Assembly: GCA_902535365.1 (NCBI GenBank)
Contig: CACATF010000002.1
Coordinates: forward strand, 15,114-79,113
DNA: 64,000 nt
Source: an uncultured SAR86 cluster bacterium
Lineage (GTDB): Bacteria; Pseudomonadota; Gammaproteobacteria; Magnimaribacterales; TMED112
Reading direction: 5' to 3'
Below, piece by piece: positions 14,883 through 64,000 of the stretch. The position numbers and the translations under genes are program-made. The notes under the pieces were generated by a model. It ran no database searches, was not told the DNA's origin, and saw only the letters and a list, made by a program, of their open reading frames with translations. Every line of letters begins with the position of its first letter. The first letter of the stretch is position 1.

Positions 14883-16127
14883 ATGATAAAAGTTCCAACC
14901 ACAGGTGAGAAAATCACATACAAAGACAACCAGCTAGTTGTCCCAAATAATCCAATAATTCCATTTATCGAAGGTGATGGTATAGGTGTAGACATAACTC
15001 CAGTTATGAAAGATGTCGTTGATGCTGCGGTAGCTAAGGCATATGGTGGTGAAAAAGAAATAAGCTGGATGGAAATATTTTGTGGTGAGAAAAGTGTGGA
15101 AGTTTATGGTGATGATCAATGGCTTCCTGAAGAAACTTTGCAGGCTTGCAAAGACTATATAGTTTCAATCAAAGGCCCATTAACAACTCCTGTTGGGGGT
15201 GGGATAAGATCCCTAAATGTGGCAATCAGACAAAAGCTAGATCTCTACGTCTGCTTGAGACCGGTTAAGTACTTTACAGGAACTCCTAGTCCTGTAAAAA
15301 GGCCAGACCTTGTTGATATGGTAATCTTCAGAGAAAATTCTGAAGATATTTACGCCGGTGTTGAATTTGAGTCAAACAGCGATGCAGCGAATAAACTTAT
15401 CAATGTTCTTGAAAAAGATTTTGGCGTTGAAAAAATTAGATTCACAGACAACTGTGGAATTGGCATCAAACCTGTATCAGAAGAGGGTAGTAAAAGATTA
15501 ATAAGAAAATCGTTTGAGTATGCTATTCAGAACGATAGAGATTCTGTTTCACTAATACACAAAGGCAATATTCAAAAATTTACAGAAGGCGCTTTCCGAG
15601 ACTGGGGATATGAGCTCGCAAGAGATGAATTTGACGGAGAACCACTTGATGGCGGTCCATGGCATTCATTTAAAAATCCAAATACTGGCAAACAAATTAT
15701 AGTGAAAGATGTTATTTGTGATGCTTTTTTACAGCAAATTCTTCACAGACCTGCGGAATATGATGTCCTTGCAGCACCAAACCTTAACGGTGATTACATT
15801 TCAGATGCTCTAGCTGCTCAAGTTGGTGGGATAGGTATTGCTCCAGGTGCGAACCTAGGTGACACGACTGCAGTTTTTGAAGCAACTCATGGAACAGCTC
15901 CAAAGTATGCTGGACAGGATAGAGTTAACCCAGGGTCACTAATTCTTTCTGCAGAGATGATGCTAAGACATCTAGGTTGGACTGAAGCTGCTGACTTAAT
16001 TATTTCAGCAATGGAATCAGCAATACAAGACAAAAAAGTTACATATGATTTTGCTAGATTAATTGATGATGCAACAGAAGTAAGTTGCTCAGAATTTGGT
16101 AAGATTCTAATAAGTAAATTTAAGTAA
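14883..16127 (+). CDS. icd: NADP-dependent isocitrate dehydrogenase
   Basis: 414 aa. IDH/IMDH signature [25 protein letters not shown]. Confidence 0.95.
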
Positions 16128-55879: not shown

Positions 55880-56587
55880 TCAAAAAGATTGATCTGCAAT
55901 ACAAGAAGCTAGACTAATGTAACTGTCAAGCTTCTGTTTATACTGATCAGGTTCCATTGCATTGCCTTTCTCATAAATAAATAAAATATTTTTACTGCAC
56001 TCAATAGTTATGCGTGGATTTTTAGTATCTTCTAGAAAATCCAGTAATTCTTTCTTTGCAAGATACTTCTTCACGTCTGCTACCATATTTTTATTTGTTG
56101 ATAGTATCTGGTATCGAAAGTTAAGAACTTTATAATCTTCAAATTTAATATCTCGGCTAATCCCTAAGCCTTCTTTTGGTTTAATAGTAAAACCTGGCAA
56201 CTTATTCTTGCACTGAAATGCAAATACAGTTGATTGTATAGGTAAATTTTCAAGTAAATTTGGTCTTTGGTTTGAAAAAATAAGAATGTTTTTTTTATAA
56301 GCAATCCTATAATATCTAGTATTTTTGAAAGGGAAAAAAAATAAATAACGTGTAGAGGGCAAGGTTGGATAGCTGCTTTTTCTAAAAAGAGAGTCTAAAT
56401 ATATTTCATTATCTTTAAGATTTTTTTCATATTTTTCATCATTTCTTTTGCCAAGATTTAATGCCACAAGAGGCAGAATAACAGCAAATAAAACCAACCA
56501 TATATAGTTTGTCTCAATCAACGGATCAAAGTAATAGAAAACCAAGAAAAGAACTAAAGAAATGAACAATATAAAGAGATTTTTCAT
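55880..56587 (-). CDS. Hypothetical membrane-anchored protein (two N-terminal TM helices)
   Basis: 235-aa ORF rich in Lys/Asn/Phe with no recognisable motifs. Flanked by AT-rich spacers. Confidence 0.5.
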   Translation of the reverse strand: MKNLFILFISLVLFLVFYYFDPLIETNYIWLVLFAVILPLVALNLGKRNDEKYEKNLKDNEIYLDSLFRKSSYPTLPSTRYLFFFPFKNTRYYRIAYKKNILIFSNQRPNLLENLPIQSTVFAFQCKNKLPGFTIKPKEGLGISRDIKFEDYKVLNFRYQILSTNKNMVADVKKYLAKKELLDFLEDTKNPRITIECSKNILFIYEKGNAMEPDQYKQKLDSYISLASCIADQSF

Positions 56588-56607: not shown

Positions 56608-56638
56608 AAAAAAAGGGCTATTTAAAGCCCTTTTTTTT
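56608..56638 (-). terminator. Rho-independent (bidirectional-looking) terminator after the SDR gene
   Basis: A-run, then AAGGGCT-ATTTAA-AGCCCTT, then a T-run of 8. On the minus strand it follows the stop at 56652. Confidence 0.65.
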
Positions 56639-56651
56639 AATAGATTTATTT

Positions 56652-57563
56652 TTAGTTTTCAGATTGCTGTATTTTTTCTAAGTGCTTTATAGCAACTTCG
56701 CCACCTTGAGTTAATCTTCTGGCATCAGTTGTATCAGCTATTTCTGCCCAATGATTAGCTACTGCTTCAGCAGTGAAATTCTCATCAGTGCCGAAGTATT
56801 TACCCATGGTTTCCATGACATATGTATTAGCAACAACACCACCACCTGCTTCAAGGATTTCACCATTAGGTGCTTTTTCACTTGCTAGAAAAATCACAGC
56901 TGGAATTATATATTTAGGATCTAGTTTTTCAGCAAACTCTGCTGGAAAGAGATGTTCTGTCATTCTAGTCGTAGCAGTTGGTGCAATAGAATTTGTGTGT
57001 ACATTATATTTAGCACCCTCGAGTTTTAGAGTATTCATTAGACCTACTACACCCATTTTTGCAGCAGCATAATTGGTTTGTCCAAAGTTTCCAAATAAAC
57101 CAGATGAAGATGATGTCATCACAATTCTTCCAAACTCTTGTTCTTTCATAATCGGAAAAACACTATGAGCGCATAAAGCAGATCCAAGCAAGTGCACATT
57201 TATGACTGCTTCAAAATCTGACCATTCCATTTTTCCAAAAGATTTATCTCTAAGAATACCGGCATTATTGATAAGAATATCTACTCTGCCCCACTTCTCC
57301 ATGGTTGCCTCAACCATTGCTTTTACATCTTCTTGTTTTGCAACATTAGCTCCGTTAGCCATTGCTTCACCGCCAGCTGCCTCAATTTCCTGTACAACTG
57401 CGTCTGCAGCAGATAATGAGCCTCCAGAACCATCTACAGTCCCGCCTAGATCATTAACAACAACTTTGGCTCCTCTTTTAGCCAACTCAAGAGCATAACC
57501 TTTTCCAATACCGTTACCTGAACCAGTAACAATAGCAACTTTATCTTTAAAATCTAATGACAT
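56652..57563 (-). CDS. SDR-family (3R)-hydroxyacyl-CoA dehydrogenase-like protein (MFE-2 / 17beta-HSD4 dehydrogenase-domain type)
   Basis: VAIVTGSGNGIGKGYALELAKRGAKVVVNDLGG...DGSGGS...AADAVVQEI closely mirrors the N-terminus of peroxisomal MFE-2 dehydrogenase domains. NNAG and YAAAK motifs. Start at the ATG preceded by GGAGG (57563), not the TTG at 57575. Confidence 0.8.
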   Translation of the reverse strand: MSLDFKDKVAIVTGSGNGIGKGYALELAKRGAKVVVNDLGGTVDGSGGSLSAADAVVQEIEAAGGEAMANGANVAKQEDVKAMVEATMEKWGRVDILINNAGILRDKSFGKMEWSDFEAVINVHLLGSALCAHSVFPIMKEQEFGRIVMTSSSSGLFGNFGQTNYAAAKMGVVGLMNTLKLEGAKYNVHTNSIAPTATTRMTEHLFPAEFAEKLDPKYIIPAVIFLASEKAPNGEILEAGGGVVANTYVMETMGKYFGTDENFTAEAVANHWAEIADTTDARRLTQGGEVAIKHLEKIQQSEN

Positions 57564-57630
57564 TTGACCCTCCAAAATAAATCAGTGGTTATTTTAATGA
57601 ATTATTAAAGAAATAGACAGAAATTATGAT

Positions 57631-58026
57631 TTACAAGGCAATAATTGCCTCTCCTACTATTTTTATATCTTGGTGTTGGTCTTCTGCTTTGATTTCAATT
57701 TTTAAGCATTTATCGCCATCTATAACAATTTCATCAATAATATGTCCTGAAAGACTAAATTCTGCTCCAATCTGCGTTATGGAAACAAATTTAGCTGAAT
57801 ATTTTTTTATCTTTTCTTGAGAGAAATTATTTGTAAGAAGTTGGCCGAGGTAAGCCATACCAAGCATGCCATGTGCAAAAACATCATCAAGACCAGCCTT
57901 TTTAACAAAATCTAAATCTATGTGGATCGGGTTATGATCTCCTGATGCACCAGCAAAAAGGGCAAGTGTTGTTCTAGAGATAGGGTTTTTTGTTAATTTA
58001 AATGAATCACCAATTCCTAAAGACAT
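57631..58026 (-). CDS. MaoC-like (R)-specific enoyl-CoA hydratase, catalytic hot-dog subunit
   Basis: Hydratase-2 motif FAGASGDHNPIHID. 131 aa. Confidence 0.85.
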   Translation of the reverse strand: MSLGIGDSFKLTKNPISRTTLALFAGASGDHNPIHIDLDFVKKAGLDDVFAHGMLGMAYLGQLLTNNFSQEKIKKYSAKFVSITQIGAEFSLSGHIIDEIVIDGDKCLKIEIKAEDQHQDIKIVGEAIIAL

Positions 58027-58027
58027 C

Positions 58028-58474
58028 TCATCCCTCTCTCATTATGTAGGTTTGCTTCAGTGTAGCTATATGTGACCCATTCTGATTTTCGACTTTTGTC
58101 TCTTCAATAAGAAAATCCAATGCGCCATCTTTTTTTGAAAATATATCTATTATTTTGGCTTGGAAAGTTAAATTATCGCCTGCATAAGCTGAGCAATAAT
58201 AGTTAAAATCTTGTGCTCCGTGTAAGAGTTTTGATAAATCCATACCAAGTGGGCCATATTTTTCAGTGAATGTTTCTCCCTCAATTGATAAAGAGAATAA
58301 GAAAGTTGGAGGCACAAGTAATGAGGGATGTCCCTTGTCATGTGCTGCCATTTCATCAAAGTAAATTGGATTAGTCTCTCCAATTGTTTTTGAAAAAAAA
58401 GCTAGCCTGCCCTTTTCAACTTCAACTTTCTTCTCAGGAAAGATATGGTTGATGTAATTTCTATTGAATGGCAT
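58028..58474 (-). CDS. MaoC N-terminal-type hot-dog protein (non-catalytic partner subunit)
   Basis: Hot-dog size and pattern (IGETNPIYFDE...) without the D-x-N-P-x-H catalytic motif. Start set at MPFNRN (58474), sharing one base with the thiolase stop (TTAATG). Confidence 0.75.
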   Translation of the reverse strand: MPFNRNYINHIFPEKKVEVEKGRLAFFSKTIGETNPIYFDEMAAHDKGHPSLLVPPTFLFSLSIEGETFTEKYGPLGMDLSKLLHGAQDFNYYCSAYAGDNLTFQAKIIDIFSKKDGALDFLIEETKVENQNGSHIATLKQTYIMREG

Positions 58475-59661
58475 TAAACATTCCTTTGGTACATTGTTAC
58501 GACACAAGCTCCACCAAGGCCTAAATTATGCTGAAGAGCTAATTGAGCTCCATCTACCTGTCTATCTCCGGCATTTTGTCTTAATTGATTGGTAAGCTCA
58601 AAGCATTGTGCCAAGCCAGTTGCCCCCAAAGGATGTCCTTTTGACAACAATCCGCCACTAGGGTTGGTAACACATTCCCCACCATATGTATTTTGGTTAT
58701 CAATAACAAACTTTTCTGCTGACCCCTCTTGAGCAAGACCCAAAGCTTCATATGAAATAAGCTCATTTGTTGTAAAGCAATCATGCAGTTCACATACATC
58801 AATATCTTTTGGCCCGTATCCACTATCCTCATAAACCTTTAGTGACGCTTCTTTTGCCATATCGTAACCAACAACTTTGCGCATATCATGATCGTCAAAA
58901 GTTGACTGGCCATCAGTCACCATTGATTGAGCAATGATCGCTACGTCAGTATTTAAATTATGTTTTTTTGCAAATTCTTCACTACATACAACAGCTGCAG
59001 CAGCTCCACATGATGGAGGGCAGCATTGAAGCCTTGTTAGTGGATCAAAAATTAAAGGTGATTGAAGCACTTCCTCTTCCGTTACTTCTTTAGTAAAAAT
59101 TGATAGTGGGTTTTTAGAGGCATGTTTGCTGGCTTTAACTCTAATTTTTGCAAGTGTTGATTTTTCAATCTGGTATTCTTTTATGTAATCTAGGCCAGCC
59201 CCGCCAAAAAATTGTGCAGCCCATGGAATCTCGTCATCAAGCCCTTGCAGTGAAATCATCTCATCATAAAAACGACGCAGCGGGTTCGGTCTGTCGTCAT
59301 AAATTAAAGGGAGCGCGCCAGGCGTCATTTGTTCAAAACCAAGTGCTAGTGCACAGTCAACTTCTCCCGATTTAACGGCTTGTCTTGCTAAGAATAAAGC
59401 GCTTGAACCGGTAGCACAGTAGTTATTTAAATTAAAGATTGGAATTCCACTTAAGCCTAAGCCATATAAAGCTGCTTGTCCTGCTGTGGAATCTGCATAA
59501 ACATATCCAACGTAGGCTTGTTGAACAAGGCTGTATTGAAGATTAGCATCATCGAGAGCTAGTCTTGCTGCTTTTTCCCCCATCACATCATAGGAATCAC
59601 TTGCTCCAGGCTTTTTGAATGGAATCATGCCGACTCCAGCAACGATGACTTTTGAAGACAC
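58474..59661 (-). CDS. SCP-x/nonspecific lipid-transfer-protein-type thiolase
   Basis: Nucleophile block NLNNYCATGSSALFLA and C-terminal NPSGGLLSKGHPLGATGLAQC match SCPx-type thiolase catalytic Cys/His/Cys contexts. Confidence 0.85.
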   Translation of the reverse strand: MSSKVIVAGVGMIPFKKPGASDSYDVMGEKAARLALDDANLQYSLVQQAYVGYVYADSTAGQAALYGLGLSGIPIFNLNNYCATGSSALFLARQAVKSGEVDCALALGFEQMTPGALPLIYDDRPNPLRRFYDEMISLQGLDDEIPWAAQFFGGAGLDYIKEYQIEKSTLAKIRVKASKHASKNPLSIFTKEVTEEEVLQSPLIFDPLTRLQCCPPSCGAAAAVVCSEEFAKKHNLNTDVAIIAQSMVTDGQSTFDDHDMRKVVGYDMAKEASLKVYEDSGYGPKDIDVCELHDCFTTNELISYEALGLAQEGSAEKFVIDNQNTYGGECVTNPSGGLLSKGHPLGATGLAQCFELTNQLRQNAGDRQVDGAQLALQHNLGLGGACVVTMYQRNV

Positions 59662-59716
59662 TTTACCAACCCCCTTTTGTATCTATCAATACATATAATA
59701 AAATAATATTGAAGGC

Positions 59717-60880
59717 ATGTTTAATTTTTTTGACAGCAATCGTGAAGATGTGGGCCTGCTGTTGTCCTCAGTAAAAAAATTTTGCGATACACATATTGAA
59801 CCCAACTACGATACTTGGGAAACAGATGGTATATTTCCAAAATCACTATGGCATAAACTGGGTGAATCAGGTTTTTTATGTATTGATATACCAGAGAAGT
59901 ATGGTGGTCAGGGTGCTGACCCAGAACTAGCTATGAGCGTGCCAAGTGCGATTACCTATGAGAACTATGGGTCTGTTTCAGTGGGTATGTCTGTACACTC
60001 CGATATCGTGGCTCACTATATACTTAACCTCGGTACAGAGGAGCAAAAACAAACCTATCTGCCCAAGATGGCATCAGGAGATTACATTGGTGCTATTGCA
60101 ATGACTGAGCCTGCTGCAGGCAGCGACCTTCAAGGTATAAAAACCCACGCTAAATTTGATGGTTCAAATTGGGTTATCAATGGATCAAAAACATTTATTA
60201 CCAATGGGCAGCATGCGGACCTTGTAATAGTTGCTGCCAAGACAAATCTGGAAGCAAAAGGGTCTTCAGGAATTTCATTGTTTTTGGTAGAAGCAGATAA
60301 TGAAGGCTTCAGTAGAGGAAGAAATTTAGAAAAATTGGGTCTTCATAGTTCTGATACATCTGAATTATTTTTCAATGAACTCAAAGTTCCAGAAAGCGCA
60401 CTATTGGGTGGCGAAGACAAGGGTTTCATTTCTTTAATGGAAGAATTGCCAAGAGAAAGGCTTGCCTTAGCTGTTAATGCAGTTGCTGCAATCAGAGGAA
60501 TGTTAGACATTACCTCTAATTATGCTCAAGAGAGAGAAGCATTTGGCAAACCAATATCTCAATTTCAGCATCTGAGGTTTAAATTTGCTGAGATGGAAAC
60601 AAAATACCGACTAAACAGCGCTTTCATAAAAGAATGTCTTAATTTATTTCAAACAAATTCCTTAGATACTGGAACAGCCTCTATGGCAAAACTTGCTAGC
60701 ACGGAAGCGCAGTGTGAAATAGCTGACACATGCTTACAAATGTTTGGTGGGTACGGTTACATGAAAGAATACCCAATATCTCGAGCTTTTGCTGATGCTA
60801 GAATACAAAAAATTTATGGTGGCACTAGTGAAATAATGCTTGAACTTATATCCAGAGATTCTTTTAGCAATAAATCATGA
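59717..60880 (+). CDS. Acyl-CoA dehydrogenase
   Basis: ACAD blocks GAIAMTEPAAGSDL, WVINGSKTFITNG and QMFGGYGYMKEYPISRAFADARIQKIYGGTSEI. Confidence 0.92.
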   Translation: MFNFFDSNREDVGLLLSSVKKFCDTHIEPNYDTWETDGIFPKSLWHKLGESGFLCIDIPEKYGGQGADPELAMSVPSAITYENYGSVSVGMSVHSDIVAHYILNLGTEEQKQTYLPKMASGDYIGAIAMTEPAAGSDLQGIKTHAKFDGSNWVINGSKTFITNGQHADLVIVAAKTNLEAKGSSGISLFLVEADNEGFSRGRNLEKLGLHSSDTSELFFNELKVPESALLGGEDKGFISLMEELPRERLALAVNAVAAIRGMLDITSNYAQEREAFGKPISQFQHLRFKFAEMETKYRLNSAFIKECLNLFQTNSLDTGTASMAKLASTEAQCEIADTCLQMFGGYGYMKEYPISRAFADARIQKIYGGTSEIMLELISRDSFSNKS

Positions 60881-61927: not shown

Positions 61928-63394
61928 TTATTTTAAAGTTGGGAAGAACACCACATCCCTGATAGATGTTTTGTTAGTTGCCAGCATAACAAGTCTATCT
62001 ATGCCTATTCCAACACCTACTGCTGGAGGCATTCCATACTTTAATGCATTAATATAGTCGTCATCAAACGACATGGCTTCCTGATCACCAAGATCTTTCT
62101 GAAGAAGCTGTTTATCAAATCTTTCTTCTTGATCTAAGGGATCATTAAGCTCACAGAAAAAGTTAGCAATTTCTCTTCCTGCAATGAAAAGCTCTATTCT
62201 GTCCGTATACTCAGGATCATCATCTTTTTTTCTTGATAAAGGTGAAACTTCATATGGATAATCTTTTACAAAAATTGGATCCCATAAATCTTTTTCAACA
62301 TGCTCTTCAAACATTTCAAGCAACACTTTGCCCCAACCCCAGTTTTTTTGGATTTTAAGTTTGTGTTTTTTTGCCTCAGCCATTATTTCATCTTCAGTTT
62401 CTAAGCTTTTAATCTTTAATTTCTCTTTCAATAAATCCTTTATTGATGCCACTCTAAAATTATTGTTTAAATTGAGTGGTTTATTCTCATATTCTATTTC
62501 TAGGGAATCGTTGACAGCTAGAACACTATTTTGGACAAGCTTTTGCACAAAATTTGTTGTTTTTTCTAGAGAACCGTATGCCTCGTAAAACTCTAGCATT
62601 GTAAATTCTGGGTTATGAACTGTTGATATTCCTTCGTTCCTAAAGTTTCGATTGATTTCATATACCCTGTCGTATCCACCAACTAACAACCTTTTAAGAT
62701 AGAGTTCTGGTGCAATTCTTAAATATAGTTTTTTATCAAGAGCATTATGATGCGTTTCAAATGGTTTTGCATTCGCACCTCCAGGTATTGGGTGCATCAT
62801 TGGTGTCTCAACTTCAAGAAATTTTTGTTCCTCTAAGTCAGATCTAAGAGATTTAATAATTGCATTTCTTTTTATAAAGATATCTCTTGAATCTTTGTTG
62901 CTCATTAAATCGATATATCTTTGTCTGTATATGGTTTCGATATCTTGAAGGCCCTTATGCTTATCAGGCATAGGTTTTAGAGACTTTGTTAATAACTGAT
63001 AATGTTTTGCCTCAATTGTTAACTCATCCGTACGCGTTCTAAATAATTGCCCAGAAACTCCAACAATATCACCAACATCCAATGTCTTAATATTTTCAAT
63101 TTCATCATCAAAATTATTTTTAGAGAAATATCCCTGAACAGAACCAGAAGTATCCTCAATTGTCATAAAAACAACTTTTCCCATTTCTCTTTTCAGAATT
63201 ACCCTTCCAGCAGTGGATACTTGAATAGCAGCTTTTTCTAAATCTTCTTTTGAAAGACTTCCATGTGCCTGAACAATATCACCAATATCTTCTGCTTTAT
63301 TGAAATCATTGGGATAGTTGAAACCAGCCTCTTTAAGCTTATTAAGCTTTTCTTCTCGGTCTCTTTCAATCTTATTAAGTTCTTTAGTATCCAT
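61928..63394 (-). CDS. lysS: Lysyl-tRNA synthetase (class II)
   Basis: OB anticodon-binding N-domain. Class II motifs ([11 protein letters not shown]; [12 protein letters not shown]). prfB-lysS linkage. Confidence 0.95.
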
Positions 63395-64000
63395 TTTTCA
63401 AACTTTCTTTTATGAAGTTGTTAATTTTACCATCTAATACGGCCTGAGTATTTGTTTCTTCATATTTGGTTCTTATGTCTTTAATACGTGATTGATCAAG
63501 AACATATGATCGAATTTGATTGCCCCATCCGATATCTGTTTTTGAATCTTCAATTTTTTGAATTTCCTCTTCTTTTTTTTGCATTTCCAATTCATAAAGT
63601 TTTGATTTTAATTGTTTTATTGCTCTGTCTTTATTTTGATGTTGTGATCTTTGTGATTGACACTGAACAACAAGTCCTGTCGGTTCATGAGTAAGCCTAA
63701 CTGCTGAGTCAGTCTTATTAACATGCTGACCTCCAGCACCACTTGCTCTGTAGGTATCAATTCTAACCTTTGACATATCTAATTCTATTTCAACATCATC
63801 TTCAATTTCAGGAGATACAAACACAGCTGCAAAAGAGGTATGTCTTCTATTTCCTGAATCAAATGGAGATTTTCTTACTAATCTATGTATGCCGGTTTCA
63901 GTTCTTAACCAGCCGAATGCATAAGTGCCTGAAATATGAATACTTGCGCTTTTTATACCAGCAACATCACCAGAAGAATATTCCTCAATCTTTACCTTAA
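63384..64000 (-). CDS. prfB: Peptide chain release factor 2, C-terminal two-thirds (5' end lies right of the window)
   Basis: GGQ motif ([16 protein letters not shown]). My manual translation of 63825..64000 stays open and reads ...[24 protein letters not shown], with the RF2-specific SPF. The track's GTG at 63824 is therefore internal. Confidence 0.93.

Follow-up and report, generated by a model that had tools for sequence, protein, structure and literature searches.

We analysed a stretch of 64,000 nucleotides from an uncultured SAR86 cluster bacterium (contig CACATF010000002.1, positions 15,114 to 79,113 of the forward strand), hereafter called the window. The region at window positions 56652 to 60880 quite probably encodes a working enzyme set for R-specific beta-oxidation, of the type known from the peroxisomal multifunctional enzyme MFE-2 and the thiolase SCPx, assembled from two units. 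It consists of four successive open reading frames (ORFs) on the minus strand and one divergent acyl-CoA dehydrogenase (ACAD) gene on the plus strand, all of them intact in the ORF list of the window. In the model that we propose, the first unit would be a 3.25-kb cassette (57631-60880), with the ACAD divergent from a thiolase, a hot-dog protein and a MaoC hydratase, the last three being translationally coupled. The second would be a core, stand-alone short-chain dehydrogenase/reductase (SDR) of the MFE-2 type, normally divergent from mdh. An initial annotation, made from the letters and the ORF list, had given gene coordinates and domain contents that were borne out by the ORF list and by comparisons with Pfam, NCBIfam and structures of the Protein Data Bank (PDB). 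Its claim of a complete D-specific cycle distinct from FadBA also holds, with the thiolase, the hydratase pair, the MFE-2-type SDR and the ACAD standing together.

The thiolase (58474..59661, minus strand, 395 aa) matches the NCBIfam family NF006102/PRK08256, 'lipid-transfer protein', with 652 bits (cut-off 436), the second-best family reaching 258 bits. Among solved structures it comes nearest to 6hsj, the SCP2-thiolase type-1 of zebrafish peroxisomes (438 bits). BbsB follows with 221 bits, Ltp2 (6ok1) with 72, and FadA-type structures stay under 41. The catalytic residues are the nucleophile C82 in NNYCATGS, the H293-D-C295-F loop and the histidine of GH343P. SCP2-thiolases take their acid/base cysteine from the HDCF loop, which replaces NEAF (PMC7682436, PMC12329534). 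Two of the catalytic contexts named in the initial annotation are correct, those of NNYC82ATGS and GH343P. The third, GATGLAQC, is not, and the acid/base cysteine is C295 in HDCF. The steroid aldolases Ltp2 and Sal, on the other hand, have YDHF or YDCY at the HDCF position and no nucleophilic cysteine (PMC12329534). Because the nucleophilic cysteine and the HDCF loop are both kept, the window protein is a true thiolase of the SCP2/SCPx type, as first proposed. The same two features rule out an Ltp2-like aldolase.

The phylogenetic placement that the initial annotation had called for agrees with this assignment. In a maximum-likelihood tree, the window thiolase and its genus orthologues form one clade (support 100/100). 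This clade is sister to thiolases of uncultured marine gammaproteobacteria (98/94), within the bacterial clade of PRK08256. That larger clade joins 6hsj, the SCP2-thiolase of zebrafish (Danio), with support 96/97, in a tree that had 6hsj as its only eukaryotic sequence and none of Ltp2. Outside both are the FadA-like thiolase of the same genome (NEAF), BbsB (HDAF) and a second family with an HDCF loop. This second family occurs in other families of the order, is 35-39% identical to the window thiolase and makes a clade of its own. It was not found in the window's genus.

Pfam finds thiolase domains only along the 395 aa, with no SCP2 lipid-binding domain. Judged by its domains, the window protein is the thiolase half of SCPx alone, and 'lipid-transfer protein' is a misnomer. 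Public annotation uses this name or propanoyl-CoA C-acyltransferase.

The two hot-dog proteins are one non-catalytic and one catalytic hydratase subunit, as had been noted before. The first (58028..58474, minus strand, 148 aa from its ATG) is of the MaoC_N/FAS1_DH_region type. It matches PF13452 with 114 bits and PF22622 (MFE-2_hydrat-2_N) with 31 bits, and it has weak matches to HadA, HadC and ChsH1 among NCBIfam models and solved structures. At the motif position it reads GETNPIY, without the catalytic Asp and His. The second (57631..58026, minus strand, 131 aa) matches PF01575 with 60 bits and keeps both residues in GDHNPIH, which makes it a predicted (R)-specific enoyl-CoA hydratase. Its best solved structures are the HadB chains 4rv2_B, 5zy8_B and 4rlj_B. 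Neither protein has a DUF35 domain in Pfam. The natural reading of the pair is a heterodimeric R-specific hydratase of the HadAB or ChsH1-ChsH2 kind. We infer the complex from the 1-nt spacing of the genes and from the strict co-occurrence of both.

The SDR (56652..57563, minus strand, 303 aa) is a stand-alone protein of the MFE-2 type, in agreement with the initial annotation. Against the yeast, fly, rat and human MFE-2 structures (2et6, 3oml, 1gz6, 1zbq), it scores 256-260 bits for each (3R)-hydroxyacyl-CoA dehydrogenase domain. The match spans residues 7-287, including the C-terminal extension that is specific to MFE-2. FabG-type structures reach at most 153 bits, and ChsB1 from Mycobacterium tuberculosis (7lg9) reaches 117. 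The motifs TGSGNGIG, NNAG and YAAAK are present. The protein is assigned by its full-length match, and its R-stereospecificity on hydroxyacyl-CoA is predicted from its relatives.

The ACAD (59717..60880, plus strand) contains all three ACAD Pfam domains, and its best structure is human long-chain ACAD (LCAD) 8w0t, with 371 bits. It accompanies the thiolase in the cassette of the genus. Taken together, the five proteins would carry out one full cycle. The ACAD would make 2-enoyl-CoA and pass its electrons to the electron transfer flavoprotein (ETF) and its quinone oxidoreductase (ETF-QO), which are encoded elsewhere on the contig. The heteromeric hydratase would yield (3R)-hydroxyacyl-CoA, which the SDR with NAD+ would convert to 3-ketoacyl-CoA. 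Finally, the SCP2-thiolase would perform the thiolytic cleavage.

The initial annotation treated the four minus-strand genes as a single string. This did not stand, since the SDR is core to the order and the other genes are accessory and lie elsewhere in other species. A survey of 41 genomes of the order recovers the SDR in 39, among them all 21 of high quality, with 57-62% identity across families. The cassette, with the ACAD divergent from thiolase-MaoC_N-MaoC, is present in 8 of 30 genomes of the genus, and thiolases of the PRK08256 type were not found as such in the other three families of the order. Because the SDR occurs with or without the cassette, and the cassette sits at differing sites, these are two units: a core gene, and an accessory cassette of four genes for which two sites at least are known. 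In four other species of the genus the cassette includes no SDR and lies between an alkylsulfatase/coiled-coil pair and mazG/indolepyruvate oxidoreductase. The corresponding site of the window genome holds a lipoprotein esterase (325 aa), and the cassette lies instead between the SDR and mdh. The order nrdAB-...-SDR<->mdh-lysS-prfB, with SDR and mdh about 90 nt apart, is that of four genomes lacking the cassette, of which two are closed. In the window species the cassette stands directly upstream of the SDR in the same orientation, which rebuilds the canonical order with a non-orthologous dehydrogenase. This mosaic of accessory cassette and core dehydrogenase guards against reading the region as one co-evolved operon.

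The alkylsulfatase-mazG interval is a variable hotspot (contig C1:390243-396306 in the window genome), and in one closed genome it also holds an alternative oxidase, a cupredoxin and hydrolases. In the cassette-less relatives, the promoter region between the divergent SDR and mdh genes contains a conserved motif of about 45 nt, TAAATTCTAATGGAAAT...ACAAGTAAACATAGAATA, perhaps a regulatory site. The window lacks this motif, also in the spacer 57564..57630.

The longest ORF of the MaoC_N gene (58028-58507) starts at TTG 58507. However, the most likely start is ATG 58474, which gives 148 aa and an overlap of 1 nt with the thiolase stop. The MaoC gene begins 1 nt past the MaoC_N stop. The junction of the units is the 67-nt spacer from the MaoC stop to the SDR (57564..57630, minus strand), where neither a hairpin nor a terminator was detected. 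The longest SDR frame (56652-57575) starts at TTG 57575, which is less favoured. ATG 57563 sits 5-9 nt after a GGAGG and is most likely the start of the 303-aa protein. An intrinsic terminator lies 3' of the SDR (56608..56638, minus strand), with an A-run, GGGCT, the loop TTAAAT, AGCCC and a T-run, and it closes the minus-strand unit ahead of an orphan gene. It was found by eye; the automated terminator and promoter scan missed it and gave nothing useful between MaoC and SDR.

At the other end, the thiolase and the ACAD are separated by an AT-rich divergent control region of 55 bp (59662..59716), the distance first reported, with a TATAAT-rich core. Elsewhere in the genus, cassette copies have an intergenic core of like composition. 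The window has no regulator gene at this place. The nearest relatives outside the genus, in contrast, have a TetR gene there.

The initial annotation implied that the gene set was unusual. It is not, being part of a widespread operon that is routinely labelled 'lipid-transfer protein / MaoC / SDR / ACAD'. The thiolase family PRK08256 is very large: at least 8000 candidates, all that were scored, fell at E <= 1e-20. Named relatives with 68-70% identity come from Cupriavidus, Pseudomonas, Variovorax, Burkholderia and Marinobacter. A scan with one genome per species gave more than 597 thiolase loci. We counted gene orders in the 64 best public loci having at least 4.5 kb downstream of the thiolase. 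Thiolase is followed by MaoC_N and MaoC in 41 of the 64, and an SDR comes directly next in 37. Further downstream, 22 of these 37 have an ACAD at least 40% identical to that of the window. The order thiolase, hot-dog, hot-dog cannot be chance, because it recurs at these frequencies. The loci span Beta-, Gamma- and Alphaproteobacteria, Actinomycetota and others; holders include Burkholderiales, Pseudomonas, Alloalcanivorax, roseobacters and Actinomycetota, and there are plasmid copies too. A Rhodococcus plasmid copy has TetR and the five genes, then two CoA ligases, two crotonases and a CaiB/BaiF-family gene.

The SDR of these operons is only 33-40% identical to that of the window (median 37%). 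A representative one is FabG-like over its full length, without the MFE-2 extension. As a candidate for the operon's usual SDR, the window SDR was thus ruled out by its 36% identity and its different architecture. The nearest relatives outside the genus (72-74% identity) show the arrangement DcaP porin / ligase<-ACAD<-TetR <-> thiolase-MaoC_N-MaoC-SDR(FabG-like)-acyltransferases-WS/DGAT. Pseudomonas operons have porin and ligases, and alcohol and aldehyde dehydrogenases, as neighbours. The genus cassette looks like the outside arrangement minus the regulator, the ligase and the SDR, and in our model it would be a pared-down copy of the widespread operon that lost these three. Literature searches yielded no paper characterising the thiolase-MaoC_N-MaoC-SDR-ACAD operon, only steroid or oestrogen clusters of the Ltp2/Sal type, which is another family. 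The present comparison therefore flags a very common five-gene operon, apparently without experimental characterisation. A bacterial peroxisome-like cycle is not new in itself, and its gene families are commonplace, with annotations already in thousands of genomes.

The role of the region has to be considered together with the rest of the genome, which measures 0.93 Mb and is 86.6% complete by markers. No protein with a 3HCDH_N domain is found in the cluster or in the window genome. Likewise, of 24 genus genomes searched for FadB-type 3HCDH_N, 22 gave none; both closed genomes are among these and back the absence of FadB. Two other families of the order do have FadB-like 3HCDH_N proteins of about 700 aa. 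The window genome has two thiolases (the SCP2-type one described here and a FadA-like one with NEAF at contig C1:243511), two MaoC proteins (that of the cassette and a PhaJ-like one of 149 aa behind an acyl-CoA ligase), one crotonase and about six SDRs. None of the other SDRs resembles a hydroxyacyl-CoA dehydrogenase. One of them (contig C1, about 15293-15748; full ORF 287 aa) matches PRK08278 with 431 bits and presumably resembles the SDR domain of peroxisomal HSDL2. There are four genes with ACAD domains, two of which form a pair like PimC (large subunit) and PimD (small subunit) and adjoin ETF and ETF-QO. ETF-QO, ETF beta/alpha and then this pair occupy contig C2:5997-13236, just upstream of window position 1. 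The pair scores 491 bits for TIGR03204 and 261 bits for TIGR03203, both under cut-off, and is a heteromeric ACAD.

The PhaJ-like single hot-dog hydratase is core to the order (40 of 41 genomes). Together with the SDR, it makes what on sequence grounds is a core 'split MFE-2', an R-hydratase plus an R-dehydrogenase. At contig C6:4013-6127, an acyl-CoA ligase is directly followed by this core 149-aa hydratase. The best NCBIfam matches of the ligase are 3-(methylthio)propionyl-CoA ligase and long-chain fatty-acid CoA ligase. The pair may be the entry point of the core R-specific pathway. Because FadB-type dehydrogenases were not found in the genus, the R-specific route may be its only path through steps 2 and 3 of beta-oxidation, and so perhaps its sole beta-oxidation route.

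Previous work divides the SAR86 order into four families. One of them, CHAB-I-7 (GTDB TMED112), has genomes of about 1.05 Mb with low GC (Freel et al., bioRxiv 10.1101/2024.03.17.584874). In that study fadB is absent from CHAB-I-7, and a 'missing step 3' of beta-oxidation is published as a metabolic lesion. The family is also reported to lack steroid side-chain genes and prpB, and a putative '17-beta-hsd', counted as a steroid gene, is present in all its genomes. The window genome looks like this family in its size, its GC content, its four-family order and its lack of fadB. If the window belongs to CHAB-I-7, this '17-beta-hsd' is very likely the MFE-2-type SDR of our locus, and the published lesion would be an annotation gap, not a missing function.

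A wider proposal can be made, which we put forward tentatively and hold at somewhat less than even chances. Fatty-acid beta-oxidation would be entirely R-specific in this FadB-less genus, with the core SDR and the MaoC hydratases supplying the 'missing step 3'. The placement of the cassette would then be a selected re-creation of the operon, replacing its lost FabG-like SDR. If true, it gives a testable account of fatty-acid oxidation in an abundant ocean lineage without fadB, by way of an MFE-2-type dehydrogenase that at present bears the label of a steroid enzyme. It would also alter the scoring of lipid use when the metabolism of SAR86-like bacteria is reconstructed from genomes.

Several observations weigh against a functional assembly of the two units. 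The SDR has its own Shine-Dalgarno sequence behind the 67-nt spacer, and it is present without the cassette in relatives. There it may be expressed on its own, and its adjacency to the cassette may be coincidental and not selected. This adjacency is one event in one species. The cassette borders show no target-site duplications, inverted repeats or traces of mobile elements, just AT-rich 8-mers. In addition, the completeness of 86.6% makes absences such as those of FadB and the racemase provisional for the window genome.

In the alternative that survives best, although we consider it unlikely, the adjacency would have no functional meaning. The cassette would use another dehydrogenase or be decaying, and the SDR would serve an unrelated core role, for example 17-beta-hydroxysteroid oxidation, the function given to it in SAR86 surveys. 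It is consistent with this that the SDR is core with or without the cassette and has its own ribosome-binding site, and that in four other species the cassette, if functional, works from a distant site. The naming of '17-beta-hsd' as a steroid gene in all CHAB-I-7 genomes (Freel et al.) points the same way. However, none of the other SDRs, in a genome with only about six, is similar to a hydroxyacyl-CoA dehydrogenase, and no 3HCDH_N protein was found. Decay is also difficult to reconcile with the cassette itself: all its ORFs are intact, and its proteins are 76-79% identical across species, much like core proteins. As for the name, ChsB1 was once annotated as a 17-beta-hydroxysteroid dehydrogenase (17-beta-HSD) and prefers hydroxyacyl-CoA esters more than 1000-fold; it also takes (3R)-hydroxyoctanoyl-CoA (PMC8204306). 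We keep the reading of one enzyme set, in which the SDR would be co-expressed with the cassette.

The next alternative concerns the substrate and has a slightly smaller chance still. By analogy with peroxisomes, the region would be a dedicated pathway for 2-methyl-branched acyl-CoAs (pristanate, phytanate) or for sterol or bile-acid side chains. The thiolase is nearest to a eukaryotic SCP2-thiolase type-1, and its family carries the automatic name propanoyl-CoA C-acyltransferase. Likewise, the ACAD is nearest to human LCAD. LCAD takes branched and bulky substrates. The CaiB/BaiF-family gene behind the Rhodococcus plasmid operon belongs to a family that includes alpha-methylacyl-CoA racemase. 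Nevertheless, the phytol, pristanate or sterol substrates of the initial annotation found no support in the 86.6%-complete genome. It also proposed a check for alpha-methylacyl-CoA racemase, and no CoA_transf_3, the domain of the racemase family, was found in the window genome. PhyH gave no match there either, a weak point as the control genomes were silent too. No methylmalonyl-CoA mutase was found in the genome, and the only frames that match carboxyltransferases, of 286 and 316 aa, do not reach the size of a propionyl-CoA carboxylase subunit. Because of these two results, there is no evident sink for propionyl-CoA. The cluster contains no DUF35, no Ltp2/Sal-type aldolase and no heteromeric ACAD of the ChsE type. 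If the window is CHAB-I-7, the reported lack of steroid side-chain genes and prpB (Freel et al.) also speaks against this pathway. Finally, the operons of the nearest relatives have a DcaP porin, a CoA ligase, acyltransferases and WS/DGAT as neighbours, which points to ordinary long-chain lipid turnover.

The substrates are probably long or bulky acyl-CoAs, with no specific compound to be named. Long-chain or bulky lipid-derived acids are suggested because the ACAD is LCAD-like and because the relatives' neighbours are porin, ligases, alcohol and aldehyde dehydrogenases, and acyltransferases.

A synthetic direction, that is reverse beta-oxidation or supply of (R)-3-hydroxyacyl-CoA for storage polymers or lipids, is very improbable: R-specific hydratases and FabG-like reductases feed polyhydroxyalkanoate synthesis in other bacteria (PMC10006253), and relatives' operons adjoin acyltransferases and WS/DGAT, but an ETF-linked ACAD, which is catabolic, belongs integrally to the cassette and is conserved in it, the genome has ETF and ETF-QO, and the streamlined genome of about 1 Mb shows no storage-lipid genes near the cluster.

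Two neighbouring features complete the description of the locus. The orphan gene, between nrdB and the SDR terminator (55880-56587), encodes a membrane protein of 235 aa with no Pfam or NCBIfam match, and tblastn found no homologue in eight stretches of the same genus. On the other side, prfB (release factor 2; 63384-63998) appears as two overlapping frames, which fits the usual programmed +1 frameshift.

Compared with peroxisomal MFE-2 (HSD17B4, or D-bifunctional protein), the dehydrogenase is alike over its full length with the C-terminal extension, and the hydratase likewise has two hot-dogs, one non-catalytic and one catalytic half. The thiolase corresponds to SCPx, with 438 bits to zebrafish 6hsj and a shared HDCF loop. 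However, the MFE-2 and SCPx of animals and fungi join their domains, and all parts in the window are separate polypeptides. The 303-aa SDR is not fused to a hydratase or an SCP2 domain, as it is in the single MFE-2 polypeptide, and neither the thiolase nor the dehydrogenase carries the SCP2 lipid-binding domain. The hydratase subunits are nearer to mycobacterial HadA/HadB than to the hydratase-2 domain of MFE-2. Moreover, the first step would depend on an ETF-linked ACAD and not on an acyl-CoA oxidase, as in peroxisomes.

ChsB1 (Rv3502c, Hsd4A) and ChsH3 (Rv3538) are a split MFE-2-like pair taking part in side-chain beta-oxidation of cholesterol in M. tuberculosis (PMC8204306). They share with the window a stand-alone bacterial R-specific dehydrogenase of the MFE-2 type, mis-annotated as 17-beta-HSD, together with a MaoC-type hydratase. 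Nevertheless, the window SDR is much nearer to eukaryotic MFE-2 (about 258 bits) than to ChsB1 (117), its hydratase is made of two single-hot-dog subunits, and the steroid regulon context is missing. The actinobacterial Ltp2-ChsH1-ChsH2 and the proteobacterial Sal-Shy systems also place a thiolase-fold protein before hot-dog proteins. Ltp2 and Sal need DUF35 on the hydratase, which the window lacks, and the window thiolase keeps its cysteine and HDCF, with only 72 bits to Ltp2 (6ok1). Regarding FadBA, the cluster has no L-3-hydroxyacyl-CoA dehydrogenase of the 3HCDH_N type, and the only NEAF thiolase of the genome is elsewhere (C1:243511).

The closest system is the widespread operon. Its thiolase (61-74% identity), hot-dog pair and ACAD are orthologous to those of the window; the pair has the identical order and tight spacing, and the ACAD, in the loci that bear one, is LCAD-like with 41-50% identity. 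On the other hand, the window ACAD is divergent and not the last gene; TetR, the CoA ligase and the FabG-like SDR are absent, and the SDR slot holds the non-orthologous core dehydrogenase of the MFE-2 type. The hosts differ as well. In an even draw of 393 high-quality Pseudomonadota genomes, the thiolase family was present in 19, all of 2.3-7.3 Mb, whereas the window host has about 1 Mb. The retention of the cassette in a genome of this size suggests that it earns its place there.

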